Positions 1 through 36,852 of a stretch of 36,852 nucleotides of DNA are shown here, one piece after another; positions within the stretch are counted from its first letter, which is position 1; each line of letters begins with the position of its first letter. Origin of the DNA: a virus; the IMG/VR virus record IMGVR_UViG_3300009537_001787, positions 1 through 36,852 of that record, one strand, 5' to 3'. A program made the translations under genes and the position numbers. The notes under the pieces were generated by a model that made no database searches, was not told the origin of the DNA, and worked only from the letters and a program-made list of their open reading frames with translations.

Positions 1-99
1 TACCGGGAGTTCAAGGCGAAGATGGCTGAGTCCACGAACAATAAAGTATTCTACCGTGGGGTCCGTTAGTGGCTCACTACAACACAAAGAACTTTGCAG
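1..99. repeat. Terminal overlap, copy 1 (identical to 36754-36852); the contig closes on itself
   Basis: nt 1-99 (taccgggagttcaagg...actttgcag) reappear identically at 36754-36852. ORF 36415-36822 and the GTG start of the tail-fibre gene read seamlessly through the junction. Confidence 0.95.
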
Positions 100-4247: not shown

Positions 4248-5501
4248 ATGCCTGTTATTGGACTGACATGGAAGCAGGTACGGACACAGGTTGCACGGAA
4301 CCTGATGGGGGAGAGCTTTGTGGCCTCGGCTCCTACCTATGCAGGTAGCACTACTACCATCATCGACAACAAGCTGCGCCATGTGGAGCCCGGCTCCTGG
4401 GTGCTGGGAACGGGCGGGACTATTGATGGTGACCTGGCGAGGGTGGACTCCTTTGAGCCATCGGGCCACACCATCAAGGTAGAGCCTGCCCTCTCTGCGG
4501 CCACAGCAACCAGCCATACCTACGAGATATACGACTCCCGGTATCCCCCTGCCTTGCTGATGGACTTTGCTAACCAGGCTATTGACCGTGCGGCTGGCAG
4601 GTTCTATGCCAGGGAGGAGAGCGTAGCTCTGCATGGGGACGGCGCCCAGTTGCGCTACGACCTGCCCTCCGAGTTTGCCATGGTAGATAAAATTGAATAT
4701 CGTAAAAGAGTTTCCAGTAAGGAGGTACACGCCTGTGATAAAGTTTTCGATGAAGCAACTGACAGTGACATTACAATCGCCATTGATACTGAAATTAAGA
4801 AAAGAGGCTCCTCGTCAATTCGTTTCACCGTTGGGGCTGGGGTATCGAACGGAGACCTGGTCTCAGACTCCATATCAAGCACGGACTATTCCTTCGGGGA
4901 CACTCTCGAAGGATGGGTAAAGTGCACTACTGCCCTGGCTAGTGGTGATCTGAATATTCTGCTGGACAACACAGCCAGTTGCGCCTCTCCGGTAGAGACT
5001 CTGACTGTGCCAGCCATTGCTGCTGATACCTGGACTTACTTCCGGGTATCCCTGGCCACGCCGGAACTTTGTACTGCCATCATCAGTGTGGGGCTGGAGT
5101 ATAACGCCAATGCCGGGGCCAACACTATCTGGCTGGACCGTCTGTCGGTAGTAGCCAATGACACCGCAGAGTGGGAGAAGTTATCCAAGCGGTCCTGGTC
5201 CCTGGACCGGGAGGGGAACGACATCATCTTCACCAGAGACGGGGCCAACCAGATCGGGTATGCCCTGCTCAAGATATCAGGAGGCAGCTATCCAACCAGG
5301 GTAACAGGGGACACGTCGGTGCTGGACATCCCAGAACAATACATAGTTAATGCCACCACTGCCTTTGCCTTGATGGGCAACTCAATGGGCCGGGAGAACG
5401 ACCCCGAGGATAGACGAGGGATGTCTGCCTACTGGGTCGGCGCCTTTGCAGAGGCAGAAAGGAAGTTCCCTAGAATGCAGAACGCCAGGAAGATTGACTA
5501 G
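4248..5501 (+). CDS. Tail/virion structural protein (417 aa) with a central beta-sandwich (carbohydrate-binding-like) insert
   Basis: Long ORF in the tail block. The central segment (SSSIRFTVGAGVSNGDL...LEGWVKCTTALASGDLNILLDN...WTYFRVSL...IWLDRLSVV) has the pattern of CBM/galactose-binding-like domains. The function is positional only. Confidence 0.6.
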   Translation: MPVIGLTWKQVRTQVARNLMGESFVASAPTYAGSTTTIIDNKLRHVEPGSWVLGTGGTIDGDLARVDSFEPSGHTIKVEPALSAATATSHTYEIYDSRYPPALLMDFANQAIDRAAGRFYAREESVALHGDGAQLRYDLPSEFAMVDKIEYRKRVSSKEVHACDKVFDEATDSDITIAIDTEIKKRGSSSIRFTVGAGVSNGDLVSDSISSTDYSFGDTLEGWVKCTTALASGDLNILLDNTASCASPVETLTVPAIAADTWTYFRVSLATPELCTAIISVGLEYNANAGANTIWLDRLSVVANDTAEWEKLSKRSWSLDREGNDIIFTRDGANQIGYALLKISGGSYPTRVTGDTSVLDIPEQYIVNATTAFALMGNSMGRENDPEDRRGMSAYWVGAFAEAERKFPRMQNARKID

Positions 5502-10090: not shown

Positions 10091-10374
10091 TATCCTATTC
10101 TCCTCTTGGGCACATGAACGAAGTCGAACGTGCTGCTCCGGCCCTTGTAGTTGCAATCAGGGTAGGGGCAATCCCTCTCTGTGTTTCCGCCACACCACCA
10201 CCACTGTAGGTCAGGGTGCCGTGGGGCGAATCCCTCATTGGGGAACACGGCATGGCATGATGGGCAGATACGATGACGGGCTACTGGTCCTCCCGGTTTA
10301 TGGAAACTAACCGAGACATCCGATCCCAGCATCTGTAGGATTTCTTCTATGCTGAACTCATCCTCTAAATTCAT
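10090..10374 (-). CDS. Zinc-ribbon protein (94 aa) sharing an N-terminal motif with the prim-pol linker
   Basis: Its start overlaps the prim-pol stop by 4 nt. It has CPSC...CPYPDC, and its N-terminus EDEFSIEEILQMLGSDVSVSFHKPGGP parallels prim-pol aa 287-316. Confidence 0.6.
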   Translation of the reverse strand: MNLEDEFSIEEILQMLGSDVSVSFHKPGGPVARHRICPSCHAVFPNEGFAPRHPDLQWWWCGGNTERDCPYPDCNYKGRSSTFDFVHVPKRRIG

Positions 10375-12278
10375 ACAGCTATCGCTTCATGGAGGAACTC
10401 ATTCAGCAGTTCCTTCCCGAAGGCCATCAGTACCCAGGGCTCACCTCTGGCCTTGACCATCCAGAGCACTTCATGGAGGGTGATATAGGTGCCGGTCAAG
10501 TGCCCAGGTGTTGCCTGATCCCGCTTGAACATCTCTTCCGAGTACTCAGGGTGCAACCCTGCTGCCTGAGCGTCGATTTCCACTTCTGCCATAGTAAGTT
10601 CACTACTTTTCGCCTTGGCTACCAGACGATAGCGGTTCTCGTTCCGGTCTATCTCCTCCTTACGTCGTATCCAGCGGGTCCCCCGGATCGGGATGTGCTT
10701 TACCCCTTTCTCCTTGCAGCGAACACGGGCCAATCCAGTCACTACCAGGGCTTCTGGGGTGGCAGTGGGTAGGAATCCCTCGTACTGGGTGCTGCTGAGG
10801 AAATGGTAACAACCCGCAGCAGACAGGTTGTCGAATCTGATGACGTGTTCTCCCTTGCGCGTCGCTGTCTTTTGCAGCGATTCCAGATAGGATTCTGCCT
10901 CATCATGAGACATACCGTCGGCTGGGATATCTCTGGTGTACCAGTGATCGTAGCGCCGGATCTTCGGCATGATGCTGTAGTAATACAGCCGTCGCATGAA
11001 CTGCATGTTCTGCCGGTTATCCACCCAGGCGTGGCTGAACAACGTGGTCGCTTTCCATCGACGGCTATGCTCGTTGATCAGCAGGGACAGAACGCCGATG
11101 GGCTTTATACCGGGTACTTTCGGGAACACCTTCTCGGCCTCAGCCCAGAGGGTATCACCCGGTTTCTGCCGTTGTGTCGGAGATAACGTGTAAGGGGTTC
11201 CGCTACTAGTATTAGCTATACACGTTATCTCCGACAACGTGTCACGGTGTATCTGCTTTTCGGCTTGTTGTTGATCGACTTTCTTCTGATAGGCTTTCAT
11301 CTCCTCTGCTGAGATAGTCTCCTGGTAGACTGGCCCCGGAGTGTAGGGCTTGTGGAATGCTTTAGGTAGAGCCTTCCCGAGCATCCCCCTGATCTCGTCG
11401 ATGCTGAAGTGGTCGTCCTCTTTCTTGACGTACTCCCCTGCTTTGTTGGCTATCCGTGTGTATTCTTTGATGCCCCCATCGAAACGCTTACTGTACTTGT
11501 TATACCCCCGGTCAATGTCTATCTCCTGGAGTGTGGCAACCACGTCCTCGGGGGATGCGCCCGATTGAAAGAGGCGTACCCCCTCGGCATACAGGGCTGT
11601 GCTGCGGTCCCGTCCCCATTCTCGGTGGGACTGGATCAGGTCTTTCCTTATCTCGCCGGGCAGTAGAGGGGCCTCTATATTCGCAGCCTTCCCGCTAGCC
11701 TCCCACCTCTCCCGGATGGCCTGTATGGCCCACTCAGGAGCATCTGGGAGGTCTTCCGTGTCCATCCAGGGGTAGTTGGTTTCCCATTGGTATCTTTGCC
11801 CGGACTTGTGGAGAGACCCGACAGCTACGGCGTACCCTCGGGGCATGATGTCGTACTCGTTGGTCTTGTTGATGTTGATCAGGGGCAGATCGGCTGGTCT
11901 CTTGTAGTAGTAATGGAGGTGCCCATCTCCCCCGCCGGATCGTACTGTCACGGTGGGAGGGAGGCCACGATTGATAAAGGTCTGGTGCCATTCTGGGGAG
12001 TCAGGGGCAATATCGAGGATGCCTGACTTGCCCAGGTCGATGCCCCAGTTAGCCAGGGGCCACCTGTCCATCCATTCCCAGACTTGCTTGATGGAGTTGG
12101 AGCTATCGTTGACTCCGTTTCGGAGCAGGGGTGCCTTGCCGATGTCGTGCCCTTCGTGGCCCTTGCCACAAGCACAGGCTCCGTCAACAGGCCAGCAGAG
12201 GGGCAGAAGATAGAGGCCTTTCTTGACTAGATCAAGGGGGAATTGTGAAACTGATGTGGATGTGGTACTATGTGTCAT
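10371..12278 (-). CDS. Bifunctional DNA primase/polymerase (prim-pol, AEP superfamily) with an uncharacterised C-terminal half
   Basis: The N-terminal ~200 aa carry prim-pol-type motifs: HDIGKAPLL, SGILDIAPD, SGGGDGHLHYYYKRP and YDIMPRGYAVAVGSLHKSGQRYQW. The usual DxD reads DIA here. No Walker A or helicase domain was seen in aa 320-635. Confidence 0.8.
   Translation of the reverse strand: MTHSTTSTSVSQFPLDLVKKGLYLLPLCWPVDGACACGKGHEGHDIGKAPLLRNGVNDSSNSIKQVWEWMDRWPLANWGIDLGKSGILDIAPDSPEWHQTFINRGLPPTVTVRSGGGDGHLHYYYKRPADLPLININKTNEYDIMPRGYAVAVGSLHKSGQRYQWETNYPWMDTEDLPDAPEWAIQAIRERWEASGKAANIEAPLLPGEIRKDLIQSHREWGRDRSTALYAEGVRLFQSGASPEDVVATLQEIDIDRGYNKYSKRFDGGIKEYTRIANKAGEYVKKEDDHFSIDEIRGMLGKALPKAFHKPYTPGPVYQETISAEEMKAYQKKVDQQQAEKQIHRDTLSEITCIANTSSGTPYTLSPTQRQKPGDTLWAEAEKVFPKVPGIKPIGVLSLLINEHSRRWKATTLFSHAWVDNRQNMQFMRRLYYYSIMPKIRRYDHWYTRDIPADGMSHDEAESYLESLQKTATRKGEHVIRFDNLSAAGCYHFLSSTQYEGFLPTATPEALVVTGLARVRCKEKGVKHIPIRGTRWIRRKEEIDRNENRYRLVAKAKSSELTMAEVEIDAQAAGLHPEYSEEMFKRDQATPGHLTGTYITLHEVLWMVKARGEPWVLMAFGKELLNEFLHEAIAV
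11175..11236. repeat. Perfect 18-bp inverted repeat (TGTCGGAGATAACGTGTA / TACACGTTATCTCCGACA) with a 26-nt spacer, inside the prim-pol gene
   Basis: The arms are 11175-11192 and 11219-11236. The spacer contains the palindrome TACTAGTA (11204-11211). The element lies in the linker-coding region of prim-pol (about aa 348-368). Confidence 0.9.
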
Positions 12279-16212: not shown

Positions 16213-16240
16213 CTGCCAACTAGCCCAAGCTAGTTGGCAG
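16213..16240 (-). promoter_or_regulatory. Perfect 12-bp stem / 4-nt loop hairpin after the first early gene
   Basis: CTGCCAACTAGC (16213-24), loop ccaa, GCTAGTTGGCAG (16229-40). It sits between genes 16253-16465 and 16013-16180. No U-tract follows on the - strand, so it may be a processing site, attenuator or non-canonical terminator. Confidence 0.5.
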
Positions 16241-16465: not shown

Positions 16466-16716
16466 CGGGTGAACCTCCATTTCTTTGATATGCTTAGTAT
16501 ACTACACCATGCTACTGATGTATATACTTTTCAGGTGTGCTTCTGGTTCCAATATGGTGAACTTTTGGGGTCAGAATAGGGAAGGTTCGAAGGCTAGGGG
16601 GAACTAAGTAAGTTGAAGCGAAGCAGGGGAATTGATAGGATAAACCCATAGCGTATGAAACACCGGCCTGAGGGATGCACGTACAGCGCCCTCTGGCCGT
16701 TATCCGGGGGGGAAAG
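16466..16716. promoter_or_regulatory. Divergent control region between the - strand early block and the + strand block
   Basis: This 251-nt non-coding gap is flanked by diverging genes and contains the 10-bp palindrome TAGTATACTA (16495-16504). The leftward sigma70-like candidate is TATACA-N17-TATACT (the - strand of 16496-16524). The rightward candidate is TTGATA (16632-37)-N16-TATGAA (16654-59). Host promoter rules are unknown. Confidence 0.4.
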
Positions 16717-17193
16717 ATGCAAGACCAGCTAGGCGTAAGCTTGGAAAGTGACGGTTTCCCAGCAGGTGCTAATTCTGCTCAGCGGGAGATGTGGGCTAAC
16801 CAGGAATTGTTTCTCCGGGCCTATGCAATGTGCGGCAAGCGTACCAGGTCAGCGGATAGCGCAGGGGTTAGTGTCGAAGCTGTGGAAAGGTGGGTGTCAT
16901 CGGATGTGTATTCTTTCAAGAAAAGAATGGCAGCAAGTCATGCCCGTTACGTGGAGAAATTAGAGGCAGAAATGGACGCAACAATCGAGGCAAAACCGAC
17001 TAACGCAGCCATCCTGCAAATCTTCCGATTGAAGGCTGAACATCCAGAGAAATACCGGGAAGAAGTCAAGGTGATTAGCAATGAGGCGCCGGCATTAATG
17101 TGGATGAGATTGAGGGAACTGGCTGGTGATAAGGGTGCTGTGGTTGAGGGAGAAGTTACGGAGTTGAATTCTGGTGATAGTGATACAGTGTAG
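16717..17193 (+). CDS. HTH protein resembling small-terminase (Terminase_2-like) N-terminal domains (158 aa)
   Basis: NQELFLRAYAMCGKRTRSADSAGVSVEAVERWVSSDVYSFKKRM follows the pattern qe.F...Y...g....A...aGvs...v..W. The later LKAEHPEKYREE motif is also common in TerS-like proteins. However, the gene lies 3.7 kb upstream of terL. ATG 16717 is preceded by a G-rich SD. Confidence 0.5.
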   Translation: MQDQLGVSLESDGFPAGANSAQREMWANQELFLRAYAMCGKRTRSADSAGVSVEAVERWVSSDVYSFKKRMAASHARYVEKLEAEMDATIEAKPTNAAILQIFRLKAEHPEKYREEVKVISNEAPALMWMRLRELAGDKGAVVEGEVTELNSGDSDTV

Positions 17194-17210: not shown

Positions 17211-17224
17211 AGTTACTAGTAACT
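17211..17224. promoter_or_regulatory. Perfect 14-bp palindrome AGTTACTAGTAACT
   Basis: Self-complementary on inspection. It begins 18 nt after the stop at 17193 and shares the TACTAGTA core with the loop of the prim-pol inverted repeat. Confidence 0.7.
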
Positions 17225-17244
17225 TGTATCTATATTATCTCTAT

Positions 17245-17259
17245 ACGTTATCGCCGACA
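17245..17259 (+). promoter_or_regulatory. Third copy of the 15-nt motif ACGTTATCNCCGACA
   Basis: ACGTTATCGCCGACA matches 14 of 15 positions of the arm of the 11175-11236 inverted repeat (ACGTTATCTCCGACA). The sub-motif CGCCGACAT recurs at 17329-17337. Confidence 0.7.
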
Positions 17260-17351
17260 TTATGATGTAGCTTACCTGGTTCTTGCTCTCTAATTAGGGG
17301 GGTGTTGAGCTATAAGCCACCGGATAAACGCCGACATAAAGTGAGGTAGTC

Positions 17352-17444
17352 ATGGATCGTGATAATGGTTGTTTCTTGTCTGGTTGTCTGTTACTGATTT
17401 GTCTGATTGCTGGTATTGCTGTTGGTCTGAGTATGCTCTGGTAA
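17352..17444 (+). CDS. Possible 30-aa single-TM micro-protein (MDRDNGCFLSGCLLLICLIAGIAVGLSMLW)
   Basis: ATG is preceded by GTGAGGTAGTC, followed by a hydrophobic stretch. It lies in an A-poor region where open frames are cheap, so support is weak. Confidence 0.3.
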   Translation: MDRDNGCFLSGCLLLICLIAGIAVGLSMLW

Positions 17445-17580
17445 GTGTTCTGCTGGTGTCTCAACAAGTGTTCTCCAAGTGTCTCAACAAGTGCATCTAA
17501 AGTGTTCTAACAAGTGTCTTGCTGGTGTTCTGCTGAGTGTATCTCTGGTGTCCTAGCAAGTGTCTCTGAGGTGGTTTCTT
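17443..17580. repeat. Six contiguous degenerate 23-bp tandem repeats; GTGT cores phased at alternating 11/12-nt spacing
   Basis: The units start at 17443, 17466, 17489, 17512, 17535 and 17558 (aagtgttctgctggtgtctcaac, aagtgttctccaagtgtctcaac, and so on). GTGT (once GTGC) begins at 17445, 17456, 17468, 17479, 17491, 17502, 17514, 17525, 17537, 17548 and 17560, and GTGG at 17571. Confidence 0.9.
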
Positions 17581-22386: not shown

Positions 22387-24336
22387 TTGCCTGAAATGAC
22401 ACCGAGCGAGATCATTCGCATCGTAGACCTGATGGAGTCAGAGAACAGCGAGGTCCAGTCCCAGATGGACGAAGACCTGGACCGCTACCGTTTACTTCCT
22501 TATGTCGGTGATAAGTCTCTGAACGAGAGCAGAAAGTTCACCAGCAACGATCCCAAGAATATTGTCAATCTGGCTTTCCATCTGATCAGTACCGCTACGG
22601 TCAGGTATCAGATCAATCGGCCTCGTGCTCAGCGTCAGGAGCGGGGTCTGGACAACATGAAGGAACTGTACGTCATTGGCACGATGGTGCAGGCTGATGA
22701 ACGTAGGGCCAGGCGGTTAACCCCTTCGGTATATGATTCCATGGCGATGCAGTGCCTGGTCAGAGGACGCAGGGCTCACCGTGTTCTGCTGGTCAGGGAG
22801 GAACTTGAGGGCCCTGGCCCAGAAGCTACCGAGATAATGGCGGCATTCCTTGAGCTATCGTCCCAGGTGCCGAATATCACACCCCCTGAGTTACCCCCTA
22901 ATACCAGGACTTTCCCTGAGATTGATGACTGGGACCCTCGCAACGTTTACTACGAGGTGGGAAGGGATGGCCTCTTGTGGGCCTGTCACAAGACCAAGAA
23001 ATCAGCATCGTCTCTCAAAGACGAGTACGATCTGTCCGATGATGACCTGCCGGATCGGGGCTTGAATAACGATGACCCCGAGTACTGGGTCTATGATTAT
23101 CTGGACACAGAAGAGAATCAGGTCATTCTAGAGAACGGTCTCTTACTGAAGGAGCCCACGATTCATGGCATGACTCGTGTTCCTGTCAGTATTGGGATTG
23201 TAGGAGCACTGCCGGTATTTCAAGCTGAAGGGGAGGATTATACCGCTGAATATGGACAGAGCGTCTTCCATGCCAACCGAGCCATGTTCGACCAGAACAA
23301 CTTCATGTTGTCCATCATGCTCGAACTTGCAGCCCGAGCCATCAATCCCCCCGTTGTATACGAGTCCCGAGATGGTTCTCTGGCACTGGACAATGACCCA
23401 CGTATCAGCGGGGCAGAAGTTTCTCTATCAACCCAGAACGAGGAGCGGATCGTTCCCATTCCCTCAGTAGAGATGACTCGTGAGACAGGAGTATTCCTGG
23501 CTAATGTACAGCAGATGGTACAGCGTGGGGCCTTCTCTCATCTGGCTCATGGAGAGATTGGCGGGGCTATCCCTTCCGGGTTCGCTATTAACCAGCTACG
23601 GCAGGGGATGGAGATCCCCGTTATGCCCACTATCAAGTCGATGATGGTAGGTCTCAAGGATATTGGGGACTTACTGGCTGATGCTTATGCTACCGGCGAG
23701 TTTGACACTATGACCCTATCCGGGAAGACTCAAGACCCGACCAGATCTTACTTCTCGGAGGAAATCACTGCCGAGATGCTGAACGATGCTGGGAACCTGG
23801 AGGTTCTCATCGAGCCCACTCTGCCACAGGACAATGCTGCCAAGGTCCAGTTGGCCCGGATGGTTACGGACGGCGCCGTGCCGATGGTCAGCATGCGGTT
23901 TGCCAGGGAGAACTACCTGGGCTTACAGGACGTAGAGCAGATCGAACGAGAGGTATACGAGCAACTGGCTGACACCGCATCTCCTGTTGCGATGGCAATG
24001 AAGCTGATGAACGCTGCTGCTGAGCAGGGAGAGTACGAGAAGGCTGAGCTTTACTGGATGGAGTTCCAGACTCAGTTATACCAGAAGCTGCTGGACCTGG
24101 GCATGGTGCAGGGAGCCCTCAATCAGGCCAATAGTACTGGGGAGGCTCCTCTATCTGGTATGGACCAGGGGAATGGAGGTGGGGGATCCCCATCCATGTC
24201 TCCTGACGTGCTGCCTTCTCAAGCTCAGGGAGTTCCCCAGGTAGCTCCGACTCCTCAGCAGGGGCCGTTAGTGCCTCCGGGAACTCCCAGACCTGGTGGA
24301 CAGGCTGACCCGGCTGATTTTGCTGCTTTAGGATGA
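22387..24336 (+). CDS. Portal protein
   Basis: 649-aa ORF directly after terL, in the portal size range, with a disordered G/P/Q-rich C-terminus. TTG 22387 has GAGGT at good spacing; ATG 22396 is the alternative start. The call rests mainly on position and size. Confidence 0.7.
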   Translation: MPEMTPSEIIRIVDLMESENSEVQSQMDEDLDRYRLLPYVGDKSLNESRKFTSNDPKNIVNLAFHLISTATVRYQINRPRAQRQERGLDNMKELYVIGTMVQADERRARRLTPSVYDSMAMQCLVRGRRAHRVLLVREELEGPGPEATEIMAAFLELSSQVPNITPPELPPNTRTFPEIDDWDPRNVYYEVGRDGLLWACHKTKKSASSLKDEYDLSDDDLPDRGLNNDDPEYWVYDYLDTEENQVILENGLLLKEPTIHGMTRVPVSIGIVGALPVFQAEGEDYTAEYGQSVFHANRAMFDQNNFMLSIMLELAARAINPPVVYESRDGSLALDNDPRISGAEVSLSTQNEERIVPIPSVEMTRETGVFLANVQQMVQRGAFSHLAHGEIGGAIPSGFAINQLRQGMEIPVMPTIKSMMVGLKDIGDLLADAYATGEFDTMTLSGKTQDPTRSYFSEEITAEMLNDAGNLEVLIEPTLPQDNAAKVQLARMVTDGAVPMVSMRFARENYLGLQDVEQIEREVYEQLADTASPVAMAMKLMNAAAEQGEYEKAELYWMEFQTQLYQKLLDLGMVQGALNQANSTGEAPLSGMDQGNGGGGSPSMSPDVLPSQAQGVPQVAPTPQQGPLVPPGTPRPGGQADPADFAALG

Positions 24337-36414: not shown

Positions 36415-36822
36415 ATGGTAACTTTACTAAATGCTCCAAAAGAACCCTCTGTTCTGTACGTGCCTGAGCATGTCAAAGCCCCTGAGCCAGAGCCTGTTCT
36501 GCTGGGAGGTATTGATAACGCCAAGAAGGACGTGCAGGGACGATGGATTAGCACCCGGACCTGGGTGCTGACCAACAAGAAGAACGGCAGGAAGCAGACC
36601 ATCTGTCTGTTGGACAACCAGATGTCAGATGATGCCATAGCTACCGCTTATGGGGAGGCTGTGGAGAACTTTTATCGTGACACCAACGATCTCCCCCGGC
36701 TGGCTACCTACACTGTCGAGCAGAGAAAGGAGGTTGGTGCTGCTATCAGGCGATACCGGGAGTTCAAGGCGAAGATGGCTGAGTCCACGAACAATAAAGT
36801 ATTCTACCGTGGGGTCCGTTAG
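36415..36822 (+). CDS. Hypothetical protein (135 aa), possibly head-tail joining by position
   Basis: The ORF runs into the terminal overlap. Its TAG overlaps the tail-fibre GTG (TAGTG) across the circular junction. Confidence 0.6.
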   Translation: MVTLLNAPKEPSVLYVPEHVKAPEPEPVLLGGIDNAKKDVQGRWISTRTWVLTNKKNGRKQTICLLDNQMSDDAIATAYGEAVENFYRDTNDLPRLATYTVEQRKEVGAAIRRYREFKAKMAESTNNKVFYRGVR

Positions 36823-36852
36823 TGGCTCACTACAACACAAAGAACTTTGCAG
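36754..36852. repeat. Terminal overlap, copy 2 (identical to 1-99)
   Basis: Direct comparison of the two window ends. It is either a 99-nt assembly overlap of a circular or circularly permuted genome, or a short direct terminal repeat. Confidence 0.95.

Follow-up and report, generated by a model that had tools for sequence, protein, structure and literature searches.

A conserved palindrome within a phage primase-polymerase gene as a candidate site of replication initiation

The prim-pol gene and its palindrome

The virus sequence analysed here, IMG/VR record IMGVR_UViG_3300009537_001787 (called the window; 36,852 nt, the whole stretch under study), carries on its minus strand an open reading frame (ORF) at 10371-12278 that encodes a primase-polymerase (prim-pol) of 635 amino acids (aa), and the subject of this report is a palindrome inside that gene: a perfect 18-bp inverted repeat with arms at 11175-11192 and 11219-11236, a 26-nt spacer and a total length of 62 nt. 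Since the ends of the window (1-99 and 36754-36852) form an exact 99-bp overlap, it corresponds to a complete circular phage genome of 36,753 bp. The protein has an N-terminal Prim-Pol (AEP) catalytic domain (aa 16-183, encoded at 11730-12233 on the minus strand; Pfam PF09250, E-value 3.8e-20). The conserved prim-pol and helical region is followed by a linker of about aa 286-369 (11172-11423, minus strand), whose coding region hosts the palindrome and cannot be aligned between close homologues, and then by an uncharacterized alpha/beta domain (aa 370-635, 10374-11171, minus strand; here the C-domain), which is the constant partner of the palindrome and is proposed to bind it. The palindrome itself encodes aa 348-369 (LSEITCIANTSSGTPYTLSPTQ), in the linker-coding part of the presumed initiator gene between the prim-pol/helical region and the C-domain, and this agrees with a first-pass annotation made from the sequence alone, which had placed it between the prim-pol domain and a C-terminal half of unknown function. 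The gene call supplied with the sequence (P0001, 566 aa) omits the first 69 codons; in the full 635-aa ORF the alignment to homologues already starts at residue 15 and takes in the CxC/GKAP motif region.

On the plus strand arm 1 reads TGTCGGAGATAACGTGTA, and arm 2, its exact reverse complement, reads TACACGTTATCTCCGACA. Arm 1 is the 3′ arm in the sense of the gene, where it encodes ..PYTLSPT, and it contains the blocks TGTC (positions 1-4) and GT (positions 14-15) that are invariant in the family described below. The centre (11193-11218) holds a near-central 8-bp palindrome, TACTAGTA (11204-11211), and is low in G+C for the gene (0.40, compared with 0.45 for the whole element and 0.55 for the gene), the element as a whole falling at the 6th percentile of gene windows of the same size. 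Arms, spacer and central palindrome lie exactly where the first-pass annotation had put them.

The repeat is the only fully (100 %) complementary one of its size that an inverted-repeat search found in the window. In 200 dinucleotide-preserving shuffles of the window, with spacers of up to 60 nt allowed, the maximum length of a perfect inverted repeat had a mean of 10.4 bp and a highest value of 14 bp, against the 18 bp observed. A covariance model, R1, built from the ten distinct sequences discussed below, has a single match in the whole window, spanning 11175-11236 (41.6 bits, E-value 4e-9), the next best scoring 14.6 bits (E-value ~0.1). The parts of the element are also rare: TACTAGTA occurs only twice in the genome, and the 12-mer TTATCNCCGACA has four exact copies (at 11175 and 22503 on the minus strand and at 11225 and 17248 on the plus strand) where 0.39 would be expected with up to one mismatch, four copies being reached in 0 of 100 shuffles. 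The copy at 22503-22514 (TTATCACCGACA, minus strand) lies inside the ORF 22387-24336 and corresponds to the outer 12 nt of the arm only, and its significance is uncertain. Counted genome-wide with shuffled controls, the motif is not scattered; there is one full element, with just one or two half-sites beyond it.

We note in addition a direct repeat, GA(T/C)AACGTGT(A/C)A(G/C)GG, at 11182-11196 and 11233-11247, 51 nt apart, by which the AACGTGT at the inner end of one arm reappears directly outside the other.

Conservation and covariation among relatives

DNA was taken for every reachable relative of the C-domain, giving 13 distinct loci, ten of which were used for model building and three of which were out of sample. 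All 13 have exactly one palindrome, of 47-62 nt, just upstream of the domain; it lies in the linker, just 5′ of the first helix of the domain (xLW motif), and its ends, TGTCSN...NSGACA, are common to all. Beside the window element, the model-building set comprises L120 and L160, which share the left arm TGTCGGCGTTTGAGTAGTA (centre 19 nt, total 57 nt), L161 (TGTCCGAGTTCCGGTA; 21 and 53 nt), L162 (TGTCGGAAATAAGGTTAAGGG; 10 and 52 nt), and six shorter elements. Of these, five are 50 nt long, namely L163 (TGTCGTTTTTACGGT, centre 20 nt), L164 (TGTCCGGGAGACGGTTAG, 14 nt), L165 (TGTCCCAAATACGGTAAGT, 12 nt), L157 (TGTCCCAAAAATAGTAA, 16 nt) and L166, whose left arm is imperfect (TGTCGC..GGTA), and the sixth, L154 (TGTCCCTTTTACTGTAGA), is 47 nt long. 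When folded as single strands all of the hairpins are more stable than shuffled sequences (z -4.2 to -7.6). The family may be defined as a single-copy dyad of 47-62 nt with TGTC/GACA termini and GT/AC at positions 14-15, no more than about 100 nt upstream of the start of the C-domain, and both the window element and those of the 12 other loci conform to this definition.

The protein sequence does not account for this conservation. The only full-length homologue in a set of 5.8 billion proteins is P0002, encoded on L120 and 44 % identical, and its linker segments have no BLASTP alignment to the window protein; at the same place in its gene is a 19-nt inverted repeat, TGTCGGCGTTTGAGTAGTA / TACTACTGAAACGCCGACA, with a 19-nt spacer. 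Because the two elements differ in length (62 and 57 nt), their left arms are in different frames (cTG TCG GAG in the window, TGT CGG CGT in L120), and the protein therefore cannot explain the TGTCGG that they have in common. Across the family the left end of the palindrome is read in all three frames and the right end in two (CCG-ACA in some lineages, xxG-GAC-A in others), from which it follows that selection acts on the DNA and not on the protein. The first-pass annotation had pointed to conservation of the DNA repeat beyond what the protein requires as one test of its proposal, and this is the pattern found, both in the closest homologue and across the ten lineages.

Covariation was assessed in the ten distinct sequences anchored at both ends (alignment A7), counting the 16 outer pairs. 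Standard pairs occupy 86 % of cells. With shuffled partners the figure is 67 %, and none of 500 shuffles attains 86 %; displacing the partner by one to three columns gives 34-43 %. Ten of the 16 stem pairs show compensatory changes on both sides; at stem position 5 there is G-C in five sequences and C-G in the other five, and at positions 7 and 13 all four pair types occur. Against this variation, positions 1-4 (TGTC/GACA) and 14-15 (GT/AC) are invariant, and these two blocks are spaced 10 bp apart, roughly one turn of the helix. The palindrome is thus under selection both for pairing and for two sequence blocks in each arm.

R1 finds one match per related locus. For an out-of-sample test, a protein-domain scan of 185,579 species genomes yielded three loci in Chloroflexota/Dehalococcoidia metagenome-assembled genomes (MAGs), and in each of them R1 finds exactly one element (51, 50 and 37 bits), located 30-90 nt upstream of the domain match and in one case with all 16 pairs perfect. 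The hexamer TGTCSG/CSGACA shows no enrichment in any locus, so that by itself the short core does not amount to a dispersed motif. In seven of 11 loci the element is among the windows of lowest G+C in its own gene (percentile 0.09 or lower). Taken together, these results describe a real, single-copy and anciently conserved DNA dyad.

Two features of L160 may be recorded here. A perfect 22-bp palindrome (CCGACACCCCG|CGGGGTGTCGG) lies at 5203-5224, just downstream of the replicase gene, and four CCGACACC sites, which reuse the terminal hexamer of the linker palindrome, occur within 7 kb (others being at 184 and 5011).

The C-terminal domain and repeats at other sites

A full HMMER scan of 1.84 billion representative proteins gave 36 relatives of aa 370-635, most of them the C-termini of proteins of about 600 aa. 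Their N-termini vary: some have Prim-Pol alone, P0029 (encoded on L160) has Prim-Pol followed by PriCT_1, P0032 has a weakly DnaG-zinc-ribbon-like and P0034 a weakly RepB'-primase-like sequence, and in L161 a weakly RepB'-primase-like protein is encoded by a separate upstream gene, as the two protein halves are separate genes in some relatives. The proteins P0002 and P0029 are only ~20 % identical over the first ~320 aa and ~93 % identical from 'EFTF(N/D)EI' onward, with the crossover ~105 nt upstream of the palindrome, and their palindrome arms are identical; this mosaicism shows that the palindrome travels with the C-domain module and not with the primase. The palindrome is accordingly tied, obligately and through module shuffling, to this one uncharacterized domain. 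The P0002/P0029 mosaic is a recent swap of the primase module, seen in two samples of one project.

Searches with the C-domain against Pfam, PHROG and PDB, by sequence and by profile, returned no match; the gene has nothing similar among INPHARED phages, neither the whole protein nor the C-domain matches IMG/VR, and a scan of IMG/VR with a motif of 14 specified bases gave single chance matches only and is uninformative. AlphaFold2, which from the single sequence reached a predicted local distance difference test score (pLDDT) of only 36, gave with a 17-sequence alignment a confident alpha/beta model (pLDDT 89, predicted template modelling score 0.84). Foldseek found nothing significant for this model (best E-value 7e-3, TM-score 0.37 or less). 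The faint matches are to a G2P-domain protein (7e-3) and microvirus initiators (top E-values from 7e-3 to 0.2) and to parvovirus NS1, all in BFVD, and to RepB of pMV158 in PDB (probability 0.69 over 66 aa), and they hint that the predicted structure may be a Rep-like binding fold. We considered whether the C-domain is an HUH nickase and rejected this identity, as the conserved residues support neither an HUH motif nor a conserved tyrosine: the 17-sequence alignment has no invariant His or Tyr column, which makes such a nickase unlikely, and there are no Pfam Rep matches.

Among the relatives, a gene for a PIF1/AAA_30-type helicase directly follows the primase-C-domain gene in L163 (4508-5788), L165 (6845-8113) and the P0007 contig, and an HTH_17 (AlpA/Xis-like) gene often precedes it. 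Satellites and integrative elements typically have such a layout; neither gene is recognizable in the window phage. The three out-of-sample loci (L167-L169) are from Dehalococcoidia/Chloroflexota MAGs in which the C-domain is encoded on large chromosomal contigs (474 kb and 228 kb), which suggests integrated elements and a host range for part of the family. In the window itself a capsid protein, a TerS-like protein, a RusA-like protein, a methyltransferase and, weakly, a TerL-like protein can be recognized; most ORFs have no Pfam or PHROG annotation, and no helicase or integrase was recognized among those scanned.

The arm of the palindrome is reused some 6 kb away, in non-coding DNA. The first-pass annotation had noted that the arm core recurs at 17245-17259 (ACGTTATCgCCGACA) with one mismatch, beside a palindrome containing TACTAGTA; the recurrence is real and the likeness extends further, since the plus-strand site 17242-17259 (TATACGTTATCGCCGACA) is identical to the whole arm at 16 of 18 positions, the family-invariant ones included. 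It lies in an island downstream of the TerS-like ORF (16675-17193). Seventeen nucleotides upstream of it is a perfect 14-bp palindrome, AGTTACTAGTAACT (17211-17224), which holds the only other TACTAGTA of the genome, and 77 nt downstream of the first CGCCGACAT core there is a second, in direct orientation (17329-17337, plus strand). We also asked whether the island holds a second, degenerate full palindrome and rejected this, as no hairpin is predicted (z -1.0) and the left half aligns only weakly; what the island holds is a lone arm and not a second hairpin. Further along, after the TerS-like ORF and a 30-aa hydrophobic ORF (17353-17445), the T-rich non-coding DNA at 17434-17580 contains about 12 phased units of 11-12 nt, each beginning GTGT, with a 23-nt super-period; the units might represent iterons or a terminase site of the pac type. 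At 16213-16240, in the gap separating two early ORFs on the minus strand, lies a possible terminator or operator, a 12-bp inverted repeat that is perfect and has a loop of 4 nt (CTGCCAACTAGC/GCTAGTTGGCAG).

Palindromes of other types occur in other prim-pol genes. A metagenome scan with the N-terminal domain identified a marine clade (L122-L130) with a different, Zn-ribbon-rich C-terminus, in which eight sequences have ATGCGACG...CGTCGCAT around an AT-rich centre of 44-47 nt, ~200 nt after the conserved N-terminal region, an offset equal to that in the window. No variation is seen in the 8-bp core, not even at four synonymous positions, and the neighbouring codons vary freely; the inner stem alternates between ACCA/TGGT and ACTA/TAGT. 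RNAalifold found conservation without covariation in the consensus stems of this clade, which for that reason provides weak parallel support only. Across all these loci, comparable inverted repeats have a background density of 0.58 per kb. The ORF of a small Zn protein in L130 contains an arm-like match of 11/12 that is probably fortuitous. In L140 a related prim-pol gene is fused to a P-loop (RepA-like) helicase, and two identical 45-bp palindromes (AACCTCACCTCCGCT-N15-AGCGGAGGTGAGGTT, at 915-959 and 1876-1920), with different spacers, bracket the helicase-coding part.

Interpretation of the palindrome

We favour the view that the 62-bp palindrome is a cis-acting DNA element, set in the stretch of the replicase gene that codes for a flexible linker between domains, and serves as the core of a replication origin, or at least as a site of initiator assembly, and from the sequence comparisons we put the probability of this at about 0.5. 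Each arm would be recognized by one of two copies of the C-domain (aa ~370-635), with the DNA in duplex form or extruded as the stem of a hairpin or cruciform; melting would follow at the centre, whose G+C content is below that of the gene in most members, perhaps aided by transcription through the gene; and the primase-polymerase domain, tethered by the very linker that the palindrome encodes, would begin DNA synthesis on the exposed strands. A helicase would then be recruited, possibly the PIF1-type enzyme encoded next door in the relatives and a host helicase in the window phage. The solitary arm at 17.2 kb, together with its TACTAGTA palindrome, may offer the same protein or proteins a secondary site.

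Origins inside initiator genes are well known. The ori of phage lambda lies in gene O (and that of P22 in gene 18), in the segment that encodes an interdomain linker, so that origin and binding specificity travel together; it consists of four ~19-bp iterons and an AT-rich tract, and is bound by the N-terminal domain of O. The first-pass annotation had drawn this analogy, and its topology is apt, in that an origin would be embedded in the linker-coding segment of the initiator's own gene with site and specificity moving as one. The architecture departs from it: the window has one long palindrome in place of iterons, a presumed binding domain at the C-terminus and an initiator that is itself a primase-polymerase. 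As to an AT-rich unwinding tract, the centre of the element is lower in G+C than its gene in seven of 11 loci and not in the other four, and a separate long AT tract is absent. The ori of phiX174 likewise lies in gene A, and the P4 alpha protein acts with ori and a second, distant cis site, crr, an arrangement that the solitary arm of the window, 6 kb from the palindrome, recalls.

Plasmids provide further parallels. In pSK41 the ori, made up of Rep boxes, is in the central part of rep, where the DNA encodes a dispensable linker between two functional domains, and the double-strand origin (dso) of pT181 lies within repC (PMC5703833). The position of the pSK41 site in the centre of the initiator gene is that of the window palindrome; the differences are that pSK41 has four directly repeated Rep boxes, an N-terminal RepA_N binding domain and a recruited host primase, and Pfam searches found no homology of the window protein to RepA_N. 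The rolling-circle dso, a hairpin-forming origin inside the initiator gene, is a parallel to the putative origin in the window, and the faint structural matches of the C-domain are to Rep, G2P and microvirus initiators, but these matches are not significant and the C-domain lacks both the HUH motif and a conserved tyrosine. The RepA protein of phage N15 has several functions, priming among them, and starts bidirectional replication inside its own gene, repA (PMC2847241). With N15 and P4 the window would share the use of one phage protein that both primes and selects an origin in its own gene, although the primase and helicase domains and the site architecture of those systems are different, the window protein has no helicase domain, and no sequence relationship was detected. 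For the AEP primases of mobile genetic elements, recruitment to origins by C-terminal winged-helix or lambda-O-like domains has been proposed (Kazlauskas et al., 2018; PMC5862659); the window protein fits this plan of shuffled modules, with a primase, a helical PriCT or helix-bundle region and a C-terminal putative origin-recognition module, except that its C-domain is neither winged-helix nor O-like by any search. A term search of that paper found no inverted repeat or linker mentioned in this context. An origin or initiator site inside the initiator gene would therefore be of a known kind, the apparent novelty lying in the single long palindrome and in a new presumed reader domain.

Several observations weigh against an origin at this position. 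There are no iterons or DnaA-box-like repeats beside the palindrome, the region 10700-11700 having two-copy direct repeats at chance level only and not the at least three directly repeated initiator-binding iterons of a lambda-type origin. GC skew follows the direction of transcription and gives no origin signal at 11.2 kb. The C-domain has no detected similarity to any known DNA-binding domain, and four of 11 elements are not low in G+C relative to their gene. The island at 17.2-17.6 kb, with its phased repeats and arm copy, could be the true origin, and the extra arm copies are seen in the window genome only, without a counterpart in the shorter related contigs. Both the binding of the replicase to the palindrome and the origin activity are inferred.

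The main rival, which we think doubtful, is that the palindrome is an autoregulatory operator or roadblock, to which the replicase (through its C-domain) or a small phage regulator would bind as a dimer within the coding region, throttling transcription of the C-terminal half and the downstream early genes, with the true origin elsewhere, for example in the 17.2-17.6-kb island. There is precedent in plasmid Rep proteins, whose dimers bind an inverted repeat and whose monomers bind the iterons of the origin. The dyad symmetry and invariant blocks do suggest a dimeric, sequence-specific binder, the island has a solitary arm, a second CGCCGACAT core, a TACTAGTA palindrome and phased GTGT units in T-rich DNA, and inheritance of the palindrome with the C-domain would be just as expected of a protein and the operator that it binds in its own gene. 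An operator, however, normally overlaps a promoter, and no sigma-70-like promoter is found within 300 bp of the palindrome; complementarity is kept even at positions such as 7 and 13 that vary freely, which a pure half-site model does not require; the centre-to-centre distance of the arms ranges from ~30 to 44 bp, a spread not easily reconciled with a dimer of fixed geometry; and island-like extra sites are absent from the related contigs. The first-pass annotation had proposed, with due reserve, a plausible origin or autoregulatory site, and this proposal is strengthened by the conservation and covariation, although these do not separate origin from operator.

A mechanistic variant of the origin model is that the palindrome acts not as a duplex-opening site but as a hairpin on single-stranded DNA, for instance during rolling-circle or strand-displacement replication, where it is recognized by the primase-C-domain protein to prime the complementary strand, in the manner of the RSF1010 ssi sites or the sso elements of plasmids. 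The strong pair covariation is in keeping with this, as is the fact that the dyad often reaches the centre, leaving loops of 4-5 nt in L161 and L162. RepB' of RSF1010, an AEP-like primase with a helix-bundle domain, starts synthesis at the inverted, hairpin-containing sites ssiA and ssiB, each of 40 nt (PMC8567376), so that here too an AEP-like primase begins at specific sequences arranged as inverted repeats. The RSF1010 sites are nevertheless two in number, with hairpins of their own on opposite strands and a conserved 5′ single-stranded hexamer in each, are exposed by RepC and RepA and are recognized by the catalytic domain, whereas the family described here has one palindrome whose arms (15-23 nt) pair with each other and contain no internal hairpins, and its specificity tracks the C-domain and neither the primase nor the helix-bundle module. 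In the island, moreover, the solitary arm is duplex DNA that cannot form a hairpin, and we regard this variant as unlikely.

A hairpin in the replicase mRNA, controlling translation (by pausing between domains, or by setting how much N-terminal product is made relative to the full-length one) or the processing of the RNA, for example by RNase III, appears very unlikely. The element is on the transcribed sense strand and exactly between two domains that are separate genes in some relatives, and an 18-bp RNA stem would be very stable. An RNA stem should tolerate wobble, but none of the 16 pairs shows a one-sided G-C to G-U-type change, and the 27 mismatched cells at positions 1-18 (three sense-strand G.T, seven antisense G.T and 17 neither) are close to random expectation and carry no wobble signature. 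The element has no Rfam match at an E-value of up to 1, and the GC-rich, short-loop stem and T-run of an intrinsic terminator are lacking, since the loop is 26 nt with no T-run tail; no terminator-like site is present on either strand in 10900-11500. With the invariant blocks in both arms, the reuse of the arm in non-coding DNA and the lack of any wobble, Rfam, terminator or promoter signal, a DNA element read by protein is favoured over an mRNA hairpin.

Hardly any weight can be given to a by-product without phage function, whether a small mobile element, a hotspot for recombination of primase modules or hairpin-templated gene conversion: the TG..CA-type termini do resemble transposon ends and the element is near the junction of shuffled modules, but unlike miniature inverted-repeat transposable elements, insertion sequence derivatives or REP-like repeats it is matched by R1 once in the complete genome and once in each related locus, non-systematic inspection of the flanking bases revealed no apparent target-site duplication, the P0002/P0029 crossover is not at the palindrome, and its constant position in lineages with just 20-35 % protein identity and diverged arms indicates an ancient element inherited vertically with the domain.

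Returning to the origin or initiator-assembly site that we favour, a more far-reaching and only tentative extension is that the C-domain is an origin-recognition module of a class not recognized before, which reads a hairpin or cruciform encoded in its own linker and may derive from the rolling-circle Rep fold with loss of catalytic activity. Domain and palindrome might then form a portable origin-plus-initiator cassette for use with any type of primase, its partners including AEP PrimPol, PrimPol with PriCT-1 and possibly DnaG-like and RepB'-like enzymes, and its hosts being phages and integrated elements found in Chloroflexota and in other uncultured bacteria.

Origins have not been identified for almost all uncultured phages, and the palindrome offers an element that can be searched for by model (a TGTC-N-GT ... 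AC-N-GACA dyad, or R1) and that marks both a probable origin and its probable reader, an unannotated domain family with a confident predicted structure. The dyad, read in three frames, also illustrates with unusual clarity how coding at the DNA level and at the protein level can overlap. If confirmed, the assignment would give a function to the C-domain family and a means of finding the origins of one class of replicons, which comprises phages, satellites and integrative elements, those of Chloroflexota included, and it would provide a clean example of a cis site and its binding domain travelling together while the catalytic primase module is exchanged.

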